From contig OZ244186.1 in NCBI GenBank assembly GCA_965216625.1, forward strand, positions 1,795,912 through 1,859,911: a DNA stretch of 64,000 bases, given 5' to 3'. This DNA is from Alphaproteobacteria bacterium. Lineage in GTDB: Bacteria; Pseudomonadota; Alphaproteobacteria; JABAAW01. How positions within the stretch are numbered: the stretch's first letter is position 1; each line of letters opens with the position of its first letter. Below, in pieces: positions 9,501-56,297 of the stretch. The notes below the pieces were generated by a model. That model was not told the DNA's origin, did no database searches, and worked only from the letters and a program-made list of their open reading frames with translations. A program made the position numbers and the translations under genes.

Positions 9501-10832
9501 ATGCCACTTGAGTTTATCCCGCACGACGAGGGGTTAGGGGACGAGGACATCAATCCTTTACAACGCCTTGTTTCCAAGTATCGGTGGCTGGAGCGCAATC
9601 GTTTCGCTTTTTTTGCGACGACTTTTATCATGGTTTTTTTCATTTGGGCGTGTTTTGCCAAGTTGGAGAAGTTTTCTATCGTGCCAGGCAGCGTTGTGCC
9701 GCAGGAGAAAACGCAGGTCATACAGCATTTGGAGGGAGGAATCATCGAGGACATCACCGTCAATATCGGCGATCAGGTAGAGAAGGGAGACTTGCTGTTT
9801 CGCATCAACTTGGCGGGCAGCCAACGCGAGGAGCAGCTGCAGGCGGAGCTCGACGGCTATATCTTGCGCAAGGCGCGAATCGAGGCTGCGATCGAGGGCG
9901 TGCCGCTCGCCTTGCCGGAGGAGGAGGTGGCGCGTCGTCCTGAGATCGCTGCTGCCGAGCGCGGTGCTTACTTGTCGGCGCGCAACCAACTTGACAGCGC
10001 GCTGCAAGTCCTTGATGCGCAGATAGAGCAGGAGCGAAGAAAAATCGGCGAAAACGAGGCACGACGCGATACTTTCAACTCTGACCTTGTCATACAAACG
10101 GAGAGTGCCAAGGTTAAAGAAGATTTGTTCAGGCAGGGGTTAGGCGCGCGGATCGAGTATTTGGAGGCAAAGGCGCGAGTAGAGCAGATCGAGGGGAGGC
10201 TCAAGGAGTTGGAGGAGGTTATTCTTGCGGCTAGGTCTGCTCTCGTTCAGGTGCAGGCGCGGCGCGAGGAGGTTTTGCGCGAGAATCAGGGTAGTTTATC
10301 GCGCGAGAAGGTTGCGACTGATAATGTTCTTGCGCAGGCACGCATTGAGTATCAGCGTGCGCTTGATGCTGCGGCGCGCACTGAGGTTGCTGCTCCTTTG
10401 CGAGGCATTGTAAAGCAGATTTACTTCAACACTATTGGAGGAGTTGTGCGACCGGGCGATCCTGTTATGGAGATTGTTCCTTCCAGCGAGAATCTTGTTG
10501 TTGAGGGCAGGTTGGCGCCGCATGAGCGGGGTTTTGTAAAAATTGATCAGGATGCGGTTGTAAAGATCACGGCGTATGATTTTTTGTTGTATGGGGGGTT
10601 GCGGGGCAAGGTTGAGCAGATTTCTGCGGACACTTTGACTGCTCCGGATGGGGCTACTTATTTTCGGGTTGTGATTCGCACGGATAGGACTTACTTGGGC
10701 GATCAGCCGGGCAATTTACCTATTTCGCCGGGCATGGAGGTTACGGCGGACATTCATACGGACAATCGGAGTGTTCTTTCTTATGTGTTGCGTCCTATTT
10801 TTCGGTTGAAGAATAGTGCGTTTCGCGAGTAG
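9501..10832 (+). CDS. Type I secretion membrane-fusion protein (HlyD family)
   Basis: One N-terminal transmembrane segment, a long coiled-coil and a C-terminal 'PGMEV' lipoyl/beta-barrel region are typical of HlyD. It lies immediately downstream of the T1SS ABC gene. Confidence 0.9.
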   Translation: MPLEFIPHDEGLGDEDINPLQRLVSKYRWLERNRFAFFATTFIMVFFIWACFAKLEKFSIVPGSVVPQEKTQVIQHLEGGIIEDITVNIGDQVEKGDLLFRINLAGSQREEQLQAELDGYILRKARIEAAIEGVPLALPEEEVARRPEIAAAERGAYLSARNQLDSALQVLDAQIEQERRKIGENEARRDTFNSDLVIQTESAKVKEDLFRQGLGARIEYLEAKARVEQIEGRLKELEEVILAARSALVQVQARREEVLRENQGSLSREKVATDNVLAQARIEYQRALDAAARTEVAAPLRGIVKQIYFNTIGGVVRPGDPVMEIVPSSENLVVEGRLAPHERGFVKIDQDAVVKITAYDFLLYGGLRGKVEQISADTLTAPDGATYFRVVIRTDRTYLGDQPGNLPISPGMEVTADIHTDNRSVLSYVLRPIFRLKNSAFRE

Positions 10833-11087
10833 TGCTTTGCGAATGAGTGACGGGACGCTCAATAATAAACGGGCGCAAAACATCGCGTGCGTAGCACGCG
10901 GGGAGCGCGAGGGAGTAATCCCTCGCAAAAGACCCCGCGTCAGCGGGAGGAATTTATCCCCCCGCGCAGTAGTGCGCTTTATCTACGCGCGTAGCGCGTA
11001 GCCTCTTATTCAAAAGCGCGTGGGGGGATAAATTCCCCTCGCAGAAACGCGCAAGCTGACTCTTAACACGGCAAGGCGGGTTTGTTA
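10833..11087. repeat. Mosaic hairpin-repeat array (family also found at eight other loci in this window)
   Basis: It contains modules 'gcgcgagggagtaatccctcgcaaaagaccccgcgtcagcgg' and 'gcgcgtagcgcgtagcctcttattcaaaagcg', which recur elsewhere in the window. Confidence 0.85.
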
Positions 11088-54597: not shown

Positions 54598-55689
54598 TTA
54601 TTTCCTCCCCGCCCGTTGAGCAACCCCCAGCACATACCGCTCCGCTAAAACCCATTGCAACCCAACCCCCAATACCCCCTTCATCCTCAACTCACAATCT
54701 AATCCATCCCCCAATAAACGCAACAATTTCTCTCTACCTCCTCCCCCTCCTCCCCATCGCCTCACCTGCTCCCCCAACCTATCCCGATAAGCAAACATCA
54801 CAAAAGGCCGCCAACGCGCAATCTCCTCACGTAATCTAACCCCATCTCCATCACTCCGCTCGTTCAAACGCATCAAACACTCTATATGACGCATCACCGA
54901 TCGCACCAACGCAATGCCCGCAACCTGCGCCGTTCGTAATCCCTCCAAACCCCGCAAACACTCAATCCCCCTCCCATCGAAAGCCGCATACAAAACCTCG
55001 CCAATTCTCGCCTCCTTCCAATCGCCCAACAAATCCCAAACAGAAGAATCAACAACACCCCCCTCGCCGTAATACAACACAACCTTCTCCATCTCGCGCT
55101 GCGCCGCCATCCTATCCCGACACAAAGCCTCGCCCAAAGCATTCAACATCATCGCATCCGCACGAACACCCCCACCCTCCAAAAACCCCCGCAGCATAGG
55201 TACAAGATCCGAACCCCGCTCCTCATAACAAGCAAAGGTCGCACCCCCAGCCGCGAACAACTTGCATAAAGGCGAATCCTTACGCAAGCCACCCGCACGA
55301 ACAACAAGAAAACTCTCCCCGTTCGACAAAGTCTCTAAGCCATCTCCAAAAACAGCGCGCGCATCAACCCTCTCGCCATCCCTTACCTCTACCACAACAA
55401 TTCGTAAGCCGCCGAACAACGACGACGAGCCAAGCACATCTCGCAATTTCTGACCCCCCTTAGCTCCGTCCTTAGTCAAAGACCCCACCCCTAATCGAAC
55501 AATATCCTCTCGGGAAATCTCCTCCCCCTCCTTCTCATTTTTGGAGAGTGCCTCCACGACGCGTTGCTCGTAATAACGCGAGCAACCCTCGTTCGGTCCA
55601 TACAAAAGCAACGCGCGAGGAAACGACGATCTGCCCCTAGACTTGCAAGCGGACAAACAAGCTTCCAACGCCGCTCGCTTCAAAATCAT
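54598..55689 (-). CDS. holA: DNA polymerase III delta subunit
   Basis: 'ALLLYGPNEG' (AAA+-like N-terminal domain) and 'LGEALCRD...' are present, with holA-lptE-leuS synteny. The protein is divergent and its coding strand is GT-rich. Confidence 0.75.
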   Translation of the reverse strand: MILKRAALEACLSACKSRGRSSFPRALLLYGPNEGCSRYYEQRVVEALSKNEKEGEEISREDIVRLGVGSLTKDGAKGGQKLRDVLGSSSLFGGLRIVVVEVRDGERVDARAVFGDGLETLSNGESFLVVRAGGLRKDSPLCKLFAAGGATFACYEERGSDLVPMLRGFLEGGGVRADAMMLNALGEALCRDRMAAQREMEKVVLYYGEGGVVDSSVWDLLGDWKEARIGEVLYAAFDGRGIECLRGLEGLRTAQVAGIALVRSVMRHIECLMRLNERSDGDGVRLREEIARWRPFVMFAYRDRLGEQVRRWGGGGGGREKLLRLLGDGLDCELRMKGVLGVGLQWVLAERYVLGVAQRAGRK

Positions 55690-56297
55690 GGCGAGGGAGA
55701 ATCCTTTTTAAGTTCACGCTCCTTCTTGCTTTGCGTGAAAAAATACAGCCGCATCCGCACCAGCATATCGTCGGCAACGAGCGCCAACACATGACGCAAC
55801 GCCTCCTCCTCCGCATCGCGCCGCGCCAGAAAGTCCGAGCGCACCGTGTAGTTGCTACGCATAAAAATACTGCCCCTCAACAAATCCTTCTGCTCTTTAG
55901 ATCGCTTCTCGCGCAACACAAATTTTGCCGTCGCACGCATTTCGCCTACGATGCGCGCTCGTCCGAAATCGCGTTCGTCGTTGTCCACCTCCAGCGAGAC
56001 GGATATGTCATGCGTCTTCCGCAGCTTTCTACCTGCGCTTGCCAAACGTTCCTCCAACATCGTACGCAAAATCTGTCCCCGCCTCTCGGCAATGGGCGCG
56101 ATGGCGATGTGGCGCAAATCTACAGCAGAGGTCTCAAGGTCGGTCTTCTGATACGAAGGAACAGGCGCAAGGCAGCCCGCGACGAAAAACAACAACAGCA
56201 ACCCCGCCGCGCGAAAAACACGCCTCCTCCTCCCAAACACAGCGCCAAACCTAAAGAATGGCGCAAAAAAATCCAATTCTGTTGCTTTTCCTGTCAC
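55686..56297 (-). CDS. lptE: LPS-assembly lipoprotein LptE
   Basis: A signal peptide plus lipobox 'FVAGC' are present. It lies between leuS and holA, the conserved position, and overlaps both neighbours by 4 nt. Confidence 0.7.

Follow-up and report, generated by a model that had tools for sequence, protein, structure and literature searches.

Mirrored strand-composition gradients around hypervariable intergenic hubs in an alphaproteobacterial genome

Hubs and flanking genes

The window, by which we mean the whole analysed stretch of 64,000 nucleotides from an uncultured Alphaproteobacteria bacterium, contains six hypervariable intergenic hubs, most of them dense with nested palindromic repeats and some with low-GC genes. 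They are listed here with their flanks; relatives are referred to by L numbers.

9900-10832, + strand: left flank of hub 1, 3' part of a hlyD/AprE-type gene; + strand G/T-rich, C-poor
10833-13307: hub 1
10839-11086: left arm of hub 1, nested palindromic modules (self-BLAST)
11088-12518, - strand: low-GC Sel1-repeat gene of hub 1 (Sel1 Pfam match 3.8e-101)
12511-13298: right arm of hub 1, tandem modules of ~110 bp
13308-14270, - strand: right flank of hub 1, epimerase/SDR gene; + strand C/A-rich, G-poor
14937-16253, - strand: left flank of hub 2, aminotransferase gene (Pfam Aminotran_1_2), 5' end toward the hub
16254-16971: hub 2, ~700 bp of palindromic modules as two inverted arms
16972-17700, - strand: right flank of hub 2, 3' end of an APH-family kinase gene; + strand C/A-rich
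18800-19990, - strand: left flank of hub 3, 5' part of ftsH; + strand (template) G-rich, C-poor
19991-20602: hub 3, long near-perfect palindrome in the tilS/ftsH spacer
20603-21900, - strand: right flank of hub 3, 3' two-thirds of tilS; + strand C/A-rich
30934-32520, + strand: left flank of hub 4, cbiX and a SNase-like lipoprotein gene; strongest block
32521-34273: hub 4, a fast-diverging gene (32588-33706, GC 0.35-0.44), then palindromic modules (33789-34164)
34274-35775, + strand: right flank of hub 4, N6/N4 DNA methyltransferase gene and cobH (Pfam N6_N4_Mtase, CbiC)
41750-42496, + strand: left flank of hub 5, 3' end of uvrC; + strand G/T-rich
42497-42766: hub 5, short module cluster; L001 has different modules instead
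42767-43400, + strand: right flank of hub 5, 5' part of moaA (Pfam Radical_SAM and Mob_synth_C); coding strand G-poor
45300-46647, + strand: left flank of hub 6/7, 3' end of a glutathione-reductase-like gene and SpoU/trmH; + strand G/T-rich
46648-54597: hub 6/7, with module arms at 46683-46960, 52849-53288 and 54105-54416
47157-52730, - strand: RTX gene of hub 6/7 (1857 aa), unskewed at both ends and absent from L001 and L031
53366-54103: low-GC HNH endonuclease gene of hub 6/7
54598-56000, - strand: right flank of hub 6/7, holA plus the beginning of the gene after it; + strand C/A-rich, G down to 7%

The gene names of the original prediction are broadly right, with holA supported at threshold only (TIGR01128, 79.4 bits vs a cutoff of 80); the established gene order leuS-lptE-holA supports this assignment as well. 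A long ORF at 13308-14885 was rejected as a spurious extension, and folE lies at 14303-14959.

The outermost 109 nt of hub 1 are terminal inverted repeats (10839-10947 and 13190-13298, 94% complementary). Here the 16-mer GACCCCGCGTCAGCGG is found on the + strand at 10931 and on the - strand at 13191; it recurs in hub 2 (+ at 16535, - at 16829) and hub 5 (+ at 42646), exactly conserved and pointing to the hub centre in every case. The palindrome of hub 3 has arms of 83 nt (20327-20409 and 20413-20495) that are 98% complementary around a 3-nt spacer, and its outer arms show 91% complementarity over 148 nt. The hub 4 gene belongs to a widespread cob-operon family with 2687 homologues, many of which are fused to CobH or named CbiG, and it is 53% identical to its L001 copy while the neighbour genes reach 96-98%.

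Hub content varies between genomes whose flanks are 90-99% identical. At the site of hub 1 L029 has a shorter Sel1 gene (55-63% identical), L026 has 400 bp and L028 44 bp. A DUF1674 gene located at hub 2 in relatives gave no tblastn match in the window. In L001 a 470-bp module hub links 46648 to 54592, and in L031 the same site is occupied by a pair of small, unrelated genes and is free of hairpins.

Strand skew around the hubs

All nine blocks of strand-specific composition named in the original prediction are indeed skewed and lie about where it had placed them, except that the uvrC block starts near 41800 and not at 41450. In 500-bp windows the GC skew amounts to +0.26 and +0.22 (10001-11000), +0.31 to +0.73 (31001-32500), +0.39 (42001-42500) and +0.28 and +0.42 (45501-46500) for the positive blocks, and to -0.36 (13501-14000), -0.39 (17001-17500), -0.31 and -0.38 (20501-21500), -0.33 to -0.43 (34001-35500) and -0.56 and -0.52 (54501-55500) for the negative ones. 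The bias is thus real, and it is stronger than had been described. Extremes of ±0.76 are reached in 200-bp windows and GC3 skew goes up to 0.8-1.0; the standard deviation of the 200-bp skew is 0.208, with ~0.09 expected from sampling. With 300-bp windows it amounts to 0.20-0.26 for the window together with its closest relative vs 0.05-0.11 for eight unrelated alphaproteobacterial loci, and 9.7% of these windows exceed an absolute skew of 0.35 compared to 0-0.5% in the unrelated loci. The skew therefore lies far beyond chance and normal variation. The blocks are depleted of C or G as predicted, but not by simple loss of C, since the GC content stays near 0.52-0.60: G (or C) climbs to 0.40-0.52 and its partner on the same strand drops to 0.07-0.17. 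At four-fold sites of the strand pointing into the hub, C falls from.36 to.13-.16 and A from.13 to.09-.11, while G rises from.34 to.44-.56 and T from.18 to.20-.32.

The blocks had been called patchy, but they are not scattered: every one adjoins a hub, a class of element that had gone unnoticed. Three further blocks of opposite transcriptional polarity had been overlooked (14937-16400, 18800-20200 and 42700-43400). In 12 of 12 flanks the + strand is G/T-rich and C-poor to the left of the hub and C/A-rich and G-poor to the right, so that over 1-1.6 kb on either side the strand running 5'-3' into the hub is the C-depleted one regardless of gene direction. Within 45 kb the sign is reversed at each of six hubs, every time in a terminus-like manner.

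Around hub 1 the GC skew is +0.27, +0.24 and +0.38 on the left (250-bp steps from the hub) and -0.46, -0.36 and -0.31 on the right. In the aminotransferase gene beside hub 2 the + strand, here the template, is G-rich and C-poor, with a coding-strand GC3 skew of -0.4 to -0.6 along the gene; the right flank of this hub shows a GC skew of -0.45 and -0.37. At hub 3 the coding GC3 skew of ftsH runs outward as -0.5, -0.4, -0.5, -0.4, -0.2 and 0.0, and the tilS side has a GC skew of -0.49, -0.24, -0.45 and -0.29. C is down to 7% and G up to 51% in the left flank of hub 4, with a skew of +0.68 and +0.78 adjoining the hub and of +0.68 to +0.76 in 200-bp windows, and all three codon positions of the SNase-like gene are affected (+0.70, +0.57 and +0.85). 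This strongest flank of the window (30934-32520) adjoins a gene and not modules. On the right of hub 4 both genes have their 5' ends toward the hub and, as had been noted for the methyltransferase-cobH block, a G-depleted coding strand (GC3 skew -0.80 and -0.51); the skew extends as far as 1.5 kb at -0.52 to -0.31. Beside hub 5 the GC3 skew climbs to +0.6 and +0.9 at the 3' end of uvrC and runs outward through moaA as -0.7, -0.6, -0.4 and -0.1. Hub 6/7 is flanked by skews of +0.59, +0.45 and +0.43 on the left (trmH GC3 skew +0.80) and of -0.72, -0.61, -0.46, -0.41 and -0.24 on the right, where the coding-strand GC3 skew of holA rises toward the hub (+0.4, +0.6, +0.7 and +1.0).

What had been taken for abrupt switches inside genes are gradients, as in uvrC with a GC3 skew of +0.2, -0.2, +0.4, +0.3, +0.6 and +0.9 in 300-nt steps. 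Pooled over the flanks, GC3 skew runs outward as +0.71, +0.77, +0.54, +0.56, +0.39, +0.38, +0.34, +0.33, +0.19 and +0.07, a roughly linear decay from about +0.74 to ~0 by ~1.6 kb (1650 bp). Mean skew is +0.35, +0.23 and +0.21 on the left vs -0.37, -0.28 and -0.22 on the right, with near-equal amplitude and decay. Switch scores are +0.52 to +1.17 for the hub gaps (at zero gap the highest is that of hub 5, +0.69) vs -0.28 to +0.09 for seven repeat-free intergenic gaps; the repeat-free hub 8 scores +0.17. Loci of the clade (223 kb) showed 21 abrupt switches from G to C and zero from C to G, where the distinct hubs number about six or seven in all and the orthologous hubs of relatives are non-independent samples; 179 kb of outgroup loci contained no abrupt switch of either sense.

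Orthologous codons are skewed in the order window ~ L029 > L026 > L028 ~ 0. Close relatives share the pattern, it is weaker in a relative at 92% FtsH identity, and it is absent from a compact, hub-less relative at 84% FtsH identity; L028 has compact intergenic regions without hub repeats. To the left of hub 1 the window has a GC3 skew of +0.45 to +0.57, L026 one of +0.04 to +0.12 and L028 one of ~0; to the right (+ strand) the values are -0.83 for the window, -0.84 for L029, -0.60 for L026 and -0.07 for L028. The corresponding values are +0.35 to +0.56 vs -0.17 to +0.16 in L028 for the aminotransferase flank, -0.64 vs +0.08 in L028 for the right flank of hub 2, and -0.54 vs -0.25 in L026 and about +0.1 in L028 for tilS. 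The skew left of hub 4 is found in L001, L032, L033 and L034 too and that on its right is kept in L001 and L002. Left of hub 5 the window and L001 show a skew of +0.33 to +0.44, and L002, devoid of palindromic modules there, one of +0.07 to +0.25. In L031 the holA and trmH flanks are skewed (+0.45 / -0.41) around a hairpin-free hub. Because the orthologues of close relatives share the composition, a recent event at strain level can be dismissed; what holds of the proposed strand-specific process is a derived, still-graded trait of the clade, which makes a lineage-specific, site-anchored process real.

On the stem branch of the window and L029 we counted, for the strand pointing into the hub, 73 C>T vs 23 G>A changes (rates.093 vs.026, p=2.5e-9), the polarisation of third positions resting on a saturated outgroup with a four-fold difference to L028 of 0.65. 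Controls gave 39 C>T vs 35 G>A (rates 0.032 and 0.026). These rates bear out the suggested strand-specific, C>T-dominated process, as for transiently single-stranded DNA. The excess is also seen at codon positions 1 and 2 (28 vs 10), in the left flank of hub 1 (20 vs 2) and on the template strand of the ftsH flank (15 vs 4), and it is accompanied by A>G 42 vs T>C 24, T>G 28 vs A>C 7 and C>G 22 vs G>C 9. By 5' base the C>T rate is.121 (A),.104 (C),.082 (G) and.085 (T); these changes show no 5'-TC or 5'-CC preference, and a 3' T is the sole enrichment. No motif or oriented k-mer is over-represented in the flanks beyond codon structure and G-runs are not enriched (318 runs of G3+ vs 401 expected). 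Spectra of recent branches are underpowered and mixed (C>T 3 vs G>A 12 on the L029 branch), and that of the window vs L032, with 23 events, is underpowered as well.

Candidate sources of the skew

The best reading of this pattern would be that recurrent breaks, or single-strand gaps, arise at the hubs. Hubs would then be fixed sites where the DNA of both sides turns single-stranded again and again, and the strand exposed on each side would be that with its 3' end toward the hub. This strand would be damaged mainly by cytosine deamination (C>T) with a lesser excess of A>G, T>G and C>G, which in the long term would leave third positions nearly free of C, shift the amino acids and fade ~1.6 kb out. 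As the likeliest source we propose a recurrent two-ended double-strand break in the hub, with subsequent 5'-3' resection and repair by recombination with the sister chromosome. The breaks might be caused by SbcCD-type cleavage of long palindromes or hairpin arrays, or alternatively by nucleases or insertion-excision events tied to the variable cargo. We regard two-ended breaks, resection and strand-specific base damage as the best explanation, with about an even chance of being correct. In published work a "5'C to 3'G single-switch" serves to diagnose breaks resected 5'-3' in both directions (PMC6786661), and the polarity of the flanks equals this signature, which points to break resection. 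In E. coli SbcCD cuts long palindromes, and RecBCD and RecA mend the resulting two-ended breaks (PMC3315005, PMC8386832); the hub 3 palindrome resembles the structures broken there and so supports breakage. Palindromic modules are not strictly needed, as the hairpin-free L031 hub has skewed flanks. The hub 4 gene lies within the supposed resection tract, yet it is weakly skewed (GC3 0.32, GC3 skew +0.12), which calls for an extra assumption such as two-sided exposure or allele turnover. Deamination alone is insufficient for the gain of G (T>G, C>G), and the rise in C>T of at least 3.6-fold needs substantial single-stranded time, or an enzyme.

Gaps left by replication could expose the same strands on the same ~1-2 kb scale, followed by deamination, if hairpin arrays or protein-bound hubs stalled both polymerases of one passing fork: on the near side a blocked Okazaki fragment would leave the lagging-strand template single-stranded, and on the far side uncoupling of helicase and polymerase would do so for the leading-strand template until repriming. 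Polarity, kilobase scale and a C>T-dominated spectrum are predicted equally well, and 44 terminator-like stem-loops, concentrated in hubs, were found in 10000-21000 vs 14.6 +/- 4 expected. However, the two sides would arise by different mechanisms, yet their amplitude and decay are nearly identical, and L031 is skewed without hairpins, so that we consider such gaps a possible but rather unlikely source. A cytosine deaminase specific for single- or double-stranded DNA, be it a toxin or domesticated, could be recruited to the hubs. Spontaneous deamination would hardly produce a bias this large without long exposure, and C>G occurs alongside C>T as in the uracil-excision-dependent bypass described in PMC11230362, but neither a 5'-TC or 5'-CC context nor a deaminase gene within the window was found, and a source of polarity, e.g. 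resection, would still be required; we judge targeted deamination improbable. Active Chi and RecA-loaded tails (RecBCD/AddAB) have a polarity equal to that of the flanks. Together with the partial gain of G from A/T (T>G exceeding A>C) this would fit selection or biased fixation that favours, close to frequently recombining sites, a 3'-ending strand rich in G/T, e.g. through RecA loading or pairing or through a dense supply of Chi-like sequences. This idea seems quite improbable in view of the lack of an over-represented oriented k-mer or of enriched G-runs in the flanks, of a C>T rate at three times control on one strand with the complementary rate unchanged, and of the implausible per-site strength on synonymous sites behind a GC3 skew of 0.9.

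G-rich non-template strands at gene ends are familiar from transcription strand asymmetry and R-loop-linked GC skew. Transcription-associated deamination, favoured in the original prediction, would have transcription converging on terminator hubs expose the coding strand near 3' ends, and indeed 8 of the 12 flanks are gene ends that read into the hub with a C-depleted coding strand, and the hubs are full of terminator-like hairpins. In the remaining four the genes read away from the hub and polarity follows the hub side: the template strand is C-depleted in the aminotransferase gene (14937-16253), ftsH (18068-19990), the methyltransferase gene with cobH (34274-35775) and moaA (42767-43855), at equally large GC3 skew (-0.43 to -0.80) and an equal C>T to G>A ratio (22:6, vs 51:17 in the other flanks). 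The explanation thus fails for these flanks and the skew is independent of transcription direction; four housekeeping genes would have to carry strong antisense transcripts across more than 1 kb, and the seven repeat-free intergenic gaps of the window lack such a switch. We consider it very improbable. Nor do the data support weak constraint of the affected regions, as had been supposed, for these regions include ftsH, moaA and uvrC, and codon positions 1 and 2 as well as the amino-acid composition are shifted in the flanks. Mosaic recombination, i.e. import of flanks from a lineage of different strand composition, had also been offered as a cause. Patches of 7-38% divergence do stand out between the window and L032 from a background of 1-2% (e.g. 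32888-33187 and 36788-37087), but these are unskewed, show a ts:tv close to 1 and do not coincide with the skewed blocks. The flanks are as identical to L001, a 90%-identical relative, as other regions (0.92-0.96), four-fold divergence is just 1.2 times control, and the skew is a smooth, mirror-symmetric, hub-anchored gradient that is graded across the phylogeny, which leaves import as the least probable cause of all.

Comparison with known systems

Bacterial chromosomes in their GC and AT skew, and vertebrate mitochondria in their gradient, become G+T-rich on the strand that is single-stranded for longer, via C>T and A>G, and the amplitude scales with exposure, as is proposed for the window. 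Chromosomal skew, however, changes sign at origin and terminus only and has a small amplitude (SD 0.05-0.1 in the control loci), whereas the window shows six terminus-like flips in 45 kb with GC3 skew to 0.9.

The pattern around the hubs is the footprint expected where DNA repeatedly breaks or gapes open, and we found no description of a comparable footprint in bacteria in the literature. Single-switch clusters of yeast (PMC6786661) are alike in that C of the top strand is mutated left of the break and G right of it, in kilobase tracts, with damage to 3'-ending single strands and C>T plus some C>G. Those are single events in a eukaryote, caused by radiation plus APOBEC or alkylation; the hubs show a fixed evolutionary gradient at the same bacterial sites, without APOBEC-like context and with changed protein composition. 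The SbcCD palindrome of E. coli is, like hub 3, a long interrupted chromosomal palindrome and leads to a replication-dependent two-ended break in every cycle, with resection and RecA loading on both flanks (PMC3315005, PMC8386832, PMC4752480). It is engineered, 246 bp in size and without a reported compositional footprint, unlike the natural, modular and variable hubs described here, and at least one relative of our genome has a skewed hotspot that lacks hairpins.

REP/BIME and MITE clusters (PMC3333891, PMC3733652, PMC3184786) likewise consist of short GC-rich extragenic palindromes in high copy, alternating and with conserved linkers, and some of the intergenic, terminator-like hairpins start with CTAC and end with GTAG. 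Flank skew is not described for REP or BIME elements in the literature found (PMC3333891, PMC3733652, PMC3184786), and no RAYT or transposase was seen in the window. The hubs differ from REP/BIME clusters by large inverted arms around a potentially gene-bearing centre, toward which the 16-mer is always oriented.

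Strand composition and hub architecture

The window has a GC content of 56% with patches of extreme strand composition, and its GC skew reaches +0.73 (32001-32500) and -0.56 (54501-55000) over 500 bp and +/-0.76 over 200 bp, with C or G down to 7%. With 0.208, the standard deviation of the 200-bp skew is about double what sampling would give, and the 300-bp skew has a standard deviation of 0.20 for the window, 0.26 for the nearest relative and 0.05-0.11 for a control set of eight unrelated alphaproteobacterial loci retrieved by the same uvrC query. Using windowed GC skew we recovered all nine skewed blocks of the original prediction and three more that had been overlooked (14937-16400, 18800-20200 and 42700-43400). 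The blocks had been described as depleted of C or of G, and this depletion is real but not a simple one, because the complementary base goes up on the same strand and the GC content stays almost constant. Four-fold degenerate sites of unaffected composition have C.36, G.34, T.18 and A.13, those on the affected strand C.13-.16, G.44-.56, T.20-.32 and A.09-.11. The skew also alters codon positions 1 and 2 and the amino-acid usage, with Gly at 10.8% in affected versus 6.6% in reference sequence, Arg at 10.8% versus 7.4% and Thr at 2.4% versus 5.2%.

A self-comparison of the window showed that repeated DNA, gene-internal Sel1 and RTX repeats aside, is confined to nine intergenic stretches which group into six hubs. 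Each skewed block adjoins one of these stretches.

Hubs of the window (coordinates, description)
10833-13307: hub 1, self-comparison repeats; 109-nt terminal inverted repeats with 94% complementarity
16254-16971: hub 2, self-comparison repeats; expanded palindromic hub
19991-20602: hub 3, palindrome with 83-nt arms, 98% complementarity and a 3-nt spacer
32521-34273: hub 4, self-comparison repeats; contains a 372-aa gene (32588-33706)
42497-42766: hub 5, self-comparison repeats
46648-54597: hub 6/7, self-comparison repeats; contains RTX and HNH endonuclease genes

The hubs are built from short, perfect, GC-rich hairpins with conserved linkers between them, laid out as two inverted arms. Amid otherwise variable hairpins the 16-mer GACCCCGCGTCAGCGG is present in ten copies with zero mismatches (at 10931, 13191, 16535, 16829, 20302, 34074, 42646, 46805, 52960 and 54360), on the + strand in left arms and on the - strand in right arms and thus always facing the hub centre. 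Read outward it is a hairpin followed by TCTTTT. Since it is kept without mismatch and in a fixed orientation, it might be a protein recognition site. We rejected the idea that the 16-mer or the arm orientation sets which flank (the ~1-1.6 kb on either side of a hub) is skewed: hubs 3, 4 and 5 are skewed on both flanks, and hubs 3 and 5 carry left-type copies only and hub 4 right-type copies only. Terminator-like stem-loops, counted over 10000-21000, are three-fold over-represented and clustered in the hubs, and Rfam covariance models gave no match at gathering thresholds across the whole window. REP/BIME elements are short, imperfect, extragenic palindromes present in multiple copies and clustered in alternating orientation, all of which also applies to the hub modules. 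REP hairpins have a conserved GTAG or CGTC at their foot; several hub hairpins have the form CTAC...GTAG (for example 10983-11001 and 13142-13174) and many others do not. A transposase such as the REP partner RAYT (TnpA-REP) is not encoded in the 64-kb window, nor is a reverse transcriptase or a deaminase. A metagenome-contig scan with a 20-mer hub motif returned 14 loci, which were discarded as chance matches in unrelated high-GC contigs; they possess no other hub modules and no skew.

At every hub the + strand is G/T-rich on the left and C/A-rich on the right (12 of 12 flanks). The switch score, defined as the skew difference between the 600 bp left and the 600 bp right of a gap, ranges from +0.52 to +1.17 for the six hubs. 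Seven intergenic gaps free of repeats score -0.28 to +0.09, and a low-GC island without repeats (59619-61072) scores +0.17. This island, which carries an NYN-domain gene (PADLOC HEC-09, 2.2e-38) and a 161-aa ORF and is conserved in the relatives' loci L030 and L031, was used as an internal control having no palindromic repeats and almost no flank skew. In a sliding scan abrupt switches go solely from G-rich to C-rich and are located solely at hubs, and G-richness is regained gradually between them. In 223 kb of clade loci we counted 21 G-to-C and no C-to-G switches, representing only about six or seven independent sites because these loci are partly orthologous, and 179 kb of outgroup loci contain no abrupt switch of either sense. 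On the hub-pointing strand, which runs 5'-3' into the hub, the pooled third-position skew starts at +0.71 to +0.77 within 300 bp of the hub, declines to +0.55 (300-600 bp), +0.38 (600-900 bp) and +0.33 (900-1200 bp) and is about 0 past 1650 bp, tracked by the T-over-A skew. The decay is alike on left and right sides and nearer to linear, an exponential fit being poor (baseline -0.26). Neither an oriented motif or G-run enrichment accounting for the G-richness nor an enrichment of G-quadruplex or Chi-like motifs was found.

Direction of substitutions and distribution among relatives

To polarise substitutions we aligned the codons of 14 genes in four genomes and called changes on the stem branch leading to the window and L029 where the relatives L026 and L028 agree. 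This analysis replaced a first polarisation (window versus L001 with outgroups L002 and L003), which was small and ambiguous and, in skewed sequence, liable to artefacts of parsimony.

Stem-branch changes on the hub-pointing strand
C>T vs G>A: flanks 73 vs 23; controls 39 vs 35
A>G vs T>C: flanks 42 vs 24; controls 43 vs 49
T>G vs A>C: flanks 28 vs 7; controls 22 vs 27
C>G vs G>C: flanks 22 vs 9; controls 18 vs 15

The per-strand C>T excess that would follow from the predicted deamination was thus observed on the hub-pointing strand of the flanks and not in the controls. As the C>T rate in flanks is.093 versus.032 in controls and the G>A rate is.026 in both (.093 versus.026 in flanks, p=2.5e-9), C>T changes have increased about three-fold on one strand only. 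Five of the six flanks show the asymmetry, and so do codon positions 1 and 2 (28 vs 10), for which the outgroup is informative; four-fold sites are saturated toward the outgroup L028 (0.65 different). Terminal-branch counts are small and mixed in direction, and the window and the relative L032 differ by 23 very recent changes, few events whose counts give an estimated per-base excess of only 2.6-fold. Four-fold divergence in flanks is 1.2 times that of controls, and the process is a biased spectrum and not a gross hypermutation.

The window belongs to a lineage of uncultured Alphaproteobacteria with genomes of ~1.6-1.9 Mb, and the FtsH of named relatives is only ~70% identical to its own. L001 and L029 are from the same genome (~90% nucleotide identity to the window, FtsH 98%), and their hubs and skew match the window almost bin for bin. 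The pattern of hub 4 is common to L032 (1-2% divergent), L033 and L034. Hubs are smaller and skew is intermediate in L026 (FtsH 92%), and L028 (FtsH 84%, GC 0.48) has compact intergenic regions without hub repeats and without flank skew. L002 has no modules downstream of uvrC and its skew there is weak.

Third-codon-position GC skew (GC3 skew) at orthologous codons
hlyD 3' end: window +0.57, L029 +0.49, L026 +0.12, L028 -0.37
epimerase 3' end: window -0.83, L029 -0.84, L026 -0.60, L028 -0.07

A recent event in the strain of the window has to be given up because close relatives share the skew; what stands is that the trait is derived and graded within the clade, co-varying with hub development. 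We rejected a strict need for palindromes on account of L031, where the hub between holA and trmH consists of two small genes without hairpins and its flanks are skewed (+0.45 / -0.41). Also the strongest flank of the window (30934-32520) adjoins a gene and not modules. The common denominator of the skewed sites is a hypervariable intergenic hotspot and not palindromes as such. In L030 the skew is -0.23 to -0.44 at the left edge of the locus (301-1200), past the right end of the window in the rplT/pheS region, as would be seen in the right-hand flank of another hub just beyond the retrieved sequence.

Possible origin of the asymmetry

In eight flanks a gene is read toward the hub and its 3' end adjoins it, so the C-depleted strand there is the coding strand, in agreement with the transcription-associated deamination proposed originally. 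In the four flanks reading away from the hub, however, it is the template strand which is C-depleted:

14937-16253: aminotransferase, template strand C-depleted
18068-19990: ftsH, template strand C-depleted
34274-35775: methyltransferase and cobH, template strand C-depleted
42767-43855: moaA, template strand C-depleted

Here the coding-strand GC3 skew is -0.43 to -0.80, and the substitution asymmetry is equal in flanks reading toward and away from the hub. Leading/lagging-strand skew from replication, which should change sign only at origin and terminus and be modest in amplitude, also failed, the sign switching at six hubs within 45 kb (hub 4 has two of the seven switch-score peaks) with an amplitude of up to 0.76. 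Against mosaic import from a lineage of different bias stand a flank identity to L001 equal to the background, the gradient of the skew and the location of import patches elsewhere. We consider it less likely, as we do selection for a GT-rich recombinogenic strand and an APOBEC/DddA-like enzymatic deamination targeted to the hubs. From the latter a 5' TC/CC preference is expected, but 72 C>T events showed no 5'-TC or 5'-CC preference (rates by 5' base: A.121, C.104, G.082, T.085), and the window lacks a deaminase gene. Outward transcription, origin-like or rolling-circle synthesis and conjugative (oriT-like) transfer from the hub, as well as end-processing of incoming linear DNA, were all rejected on polarity alone as they predict the opposite strand.

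The depleted strand is always the one with its 3' end toward the hub. A two-ended break in the hub followed by 5'-3' resection would leave just this strand single-stranded, and its deamination would lead to the loss of C within a resection reach of ~1.6 kb. Deamination is far faster in single-stranded than in duplex DNA, and DNA exposed in this form turns G+T-rich, as in bacterial leading-strand sequence and the vertebrate mitochondrial heavy strand. In yeast, a top strand with mutated C to the left of the break and mutated G to its right is diagnostic of bidirectional resection, the opposite arrangement being missing or very rare (PMC6786661); all 12 flanks show this single switch from C-type to G-type and never its reversal. 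Long palindromes in E. coli are cut by SbcCD at each replication, which leaves two-ended breaks for RecBCD and RecA to repair from the sister chromosome (PMC3315005, PMC8386832, PMC4752480), and hub 3 is a long palindrome of a like sort. Hub content turns over fast between genomes with 90-99% identical flanks, which fits frequent breakage and repair. From the strand polarity, the yeast diagnostic, palindrome breakage and hub turnover we infer single-strandedness, breakage and the cause of the breaks, and favour recurrent breaks at the hubs with ~1.6 kb of resection, a model to which we give an even chance of being correct. Polymerase stalling at the hub, leaving daughter-strand gaps on both sides, predicts the same polarity and appears to us rather unlikely.

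The ingredients are known already, namely the asymmetric deamination of single strands, the polarity of resection and the breakage of palindromes. What seems to be new is their evolutionary footprint at fixed sites in bacteria: full-text literature searches gave no description of a bacterial skew that is mirror-symmetric on a kilobase scale and tied to intergenic repeats or hotspots. If recurrent breakage is true, fixed sites of a bacterial chromosome can own a strand-asymmetric mutation regime that overrides codon usage (GC3 skew up to 0.9), changes amino-acid content and misleads gene callers. Natural genomes would then record where DNA ends or gaps arise and how far resection reaches (~1.6 kb here), making resection polarity and tract length readable straight from sequence. 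To our knowledge, measurements of such sites and of the resection reach have to date come only from systems engineered in E. coli and yeast. As routine markers for origins, termini and horizontally transferred islands, local skew and low GC would both be misread at hub loci.

Genes at the hubs and gene calling

The low-GC genes between hub arms encode a Sel1-repeat protein, an HNH endonuclease, an RTX protein (1857 aa) and a 372-aa protein. The gene for the latter (32588-33706; GC 0.35-0.44, GC3 0.32) looks like a foreign island at first sight, but occupies its expected position in the cob operon. It matches an uncharacterised domain of PRK14495 (NCBIfam), and 2687 homologues were detected, many fused to CobH or annotated as CbiG-like; a distant one has a GC content of 0.665, typical of its genome. 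Between the window and the L001 genome the gene is 53% identical, and its neighbours 96-98%. Part of this divergence is due to recombination, as a 300-bp patch (32888-33187) is 38% divergent from L032 against a background of 1-2%, with a ts:tv of ~1. Three more patches (34988-35287, 36788-37087 and 38888-39187) are 7-16% divergent from L032 over the same background, and such patches suggest frequent homologous-recombination imports from diverged relatives in the population.

More speculatively, exposure from the two flanks may deplete hub-centre genes of C and G alike, turning them into AT-rich "pseudo-islands". It seems improbable to us that the hubs are natural chronic fragile sites which break or open up in most generations and leave a permanent mirror footprint, with low-GC centres that are perhaps native and deaminated on both strands. 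If so, local mutation alone would yield AT-rich, fast-evolving regions mimicking horizontal transfer, and the same process would rewrite the amino-acid composition of neighbouring housekeeping proteins.

Hub 6/7 contains the RTX-repeat gene (47157-52730) and the HNH endonuclease gene (53366-54103, GC 0.32). Neither end of the RTX gene is skewed, in spite of the adjoining module arms, and the gene is absent from two relatives: the counterpart of the hub is ~470 bp of modules only in L001 and two unrelated small genes in L031. A small, conserved DUF1674 gene, kept between the APH-family gene and the aminotransferase in L029 (13109-13282), L026 (13434-13649) and L028 (13156-13356), is missing from the window (no tblastn match), and the expanded palindromic hub 2 occupies its place.

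Extreme skew derails ORF and gene calling in L032, L033 and the window. In L032 the methyltransferase region (7010-8298) is called as two antisense genes without Pfam match, and in L033 an antisense 121-aa gene (8352-8717) is called at the cobH position. In the window a 525-aa ORF (13308-14885) is a spurious extension across folE (14303-14959) and a 184-aa, G/E/V-rich antisense ORF (34280-34834) lies over the methyltransferase. Finally, L026 (479-22398) and L027 (1827559-1849478) are the same 22-kb region found twice, with small differences, near both ends of one 1,936,763-bp ENA contig. The doubling is probably an assembly matter, either a circular overlap left untrimmed or a strain-variant duplication.
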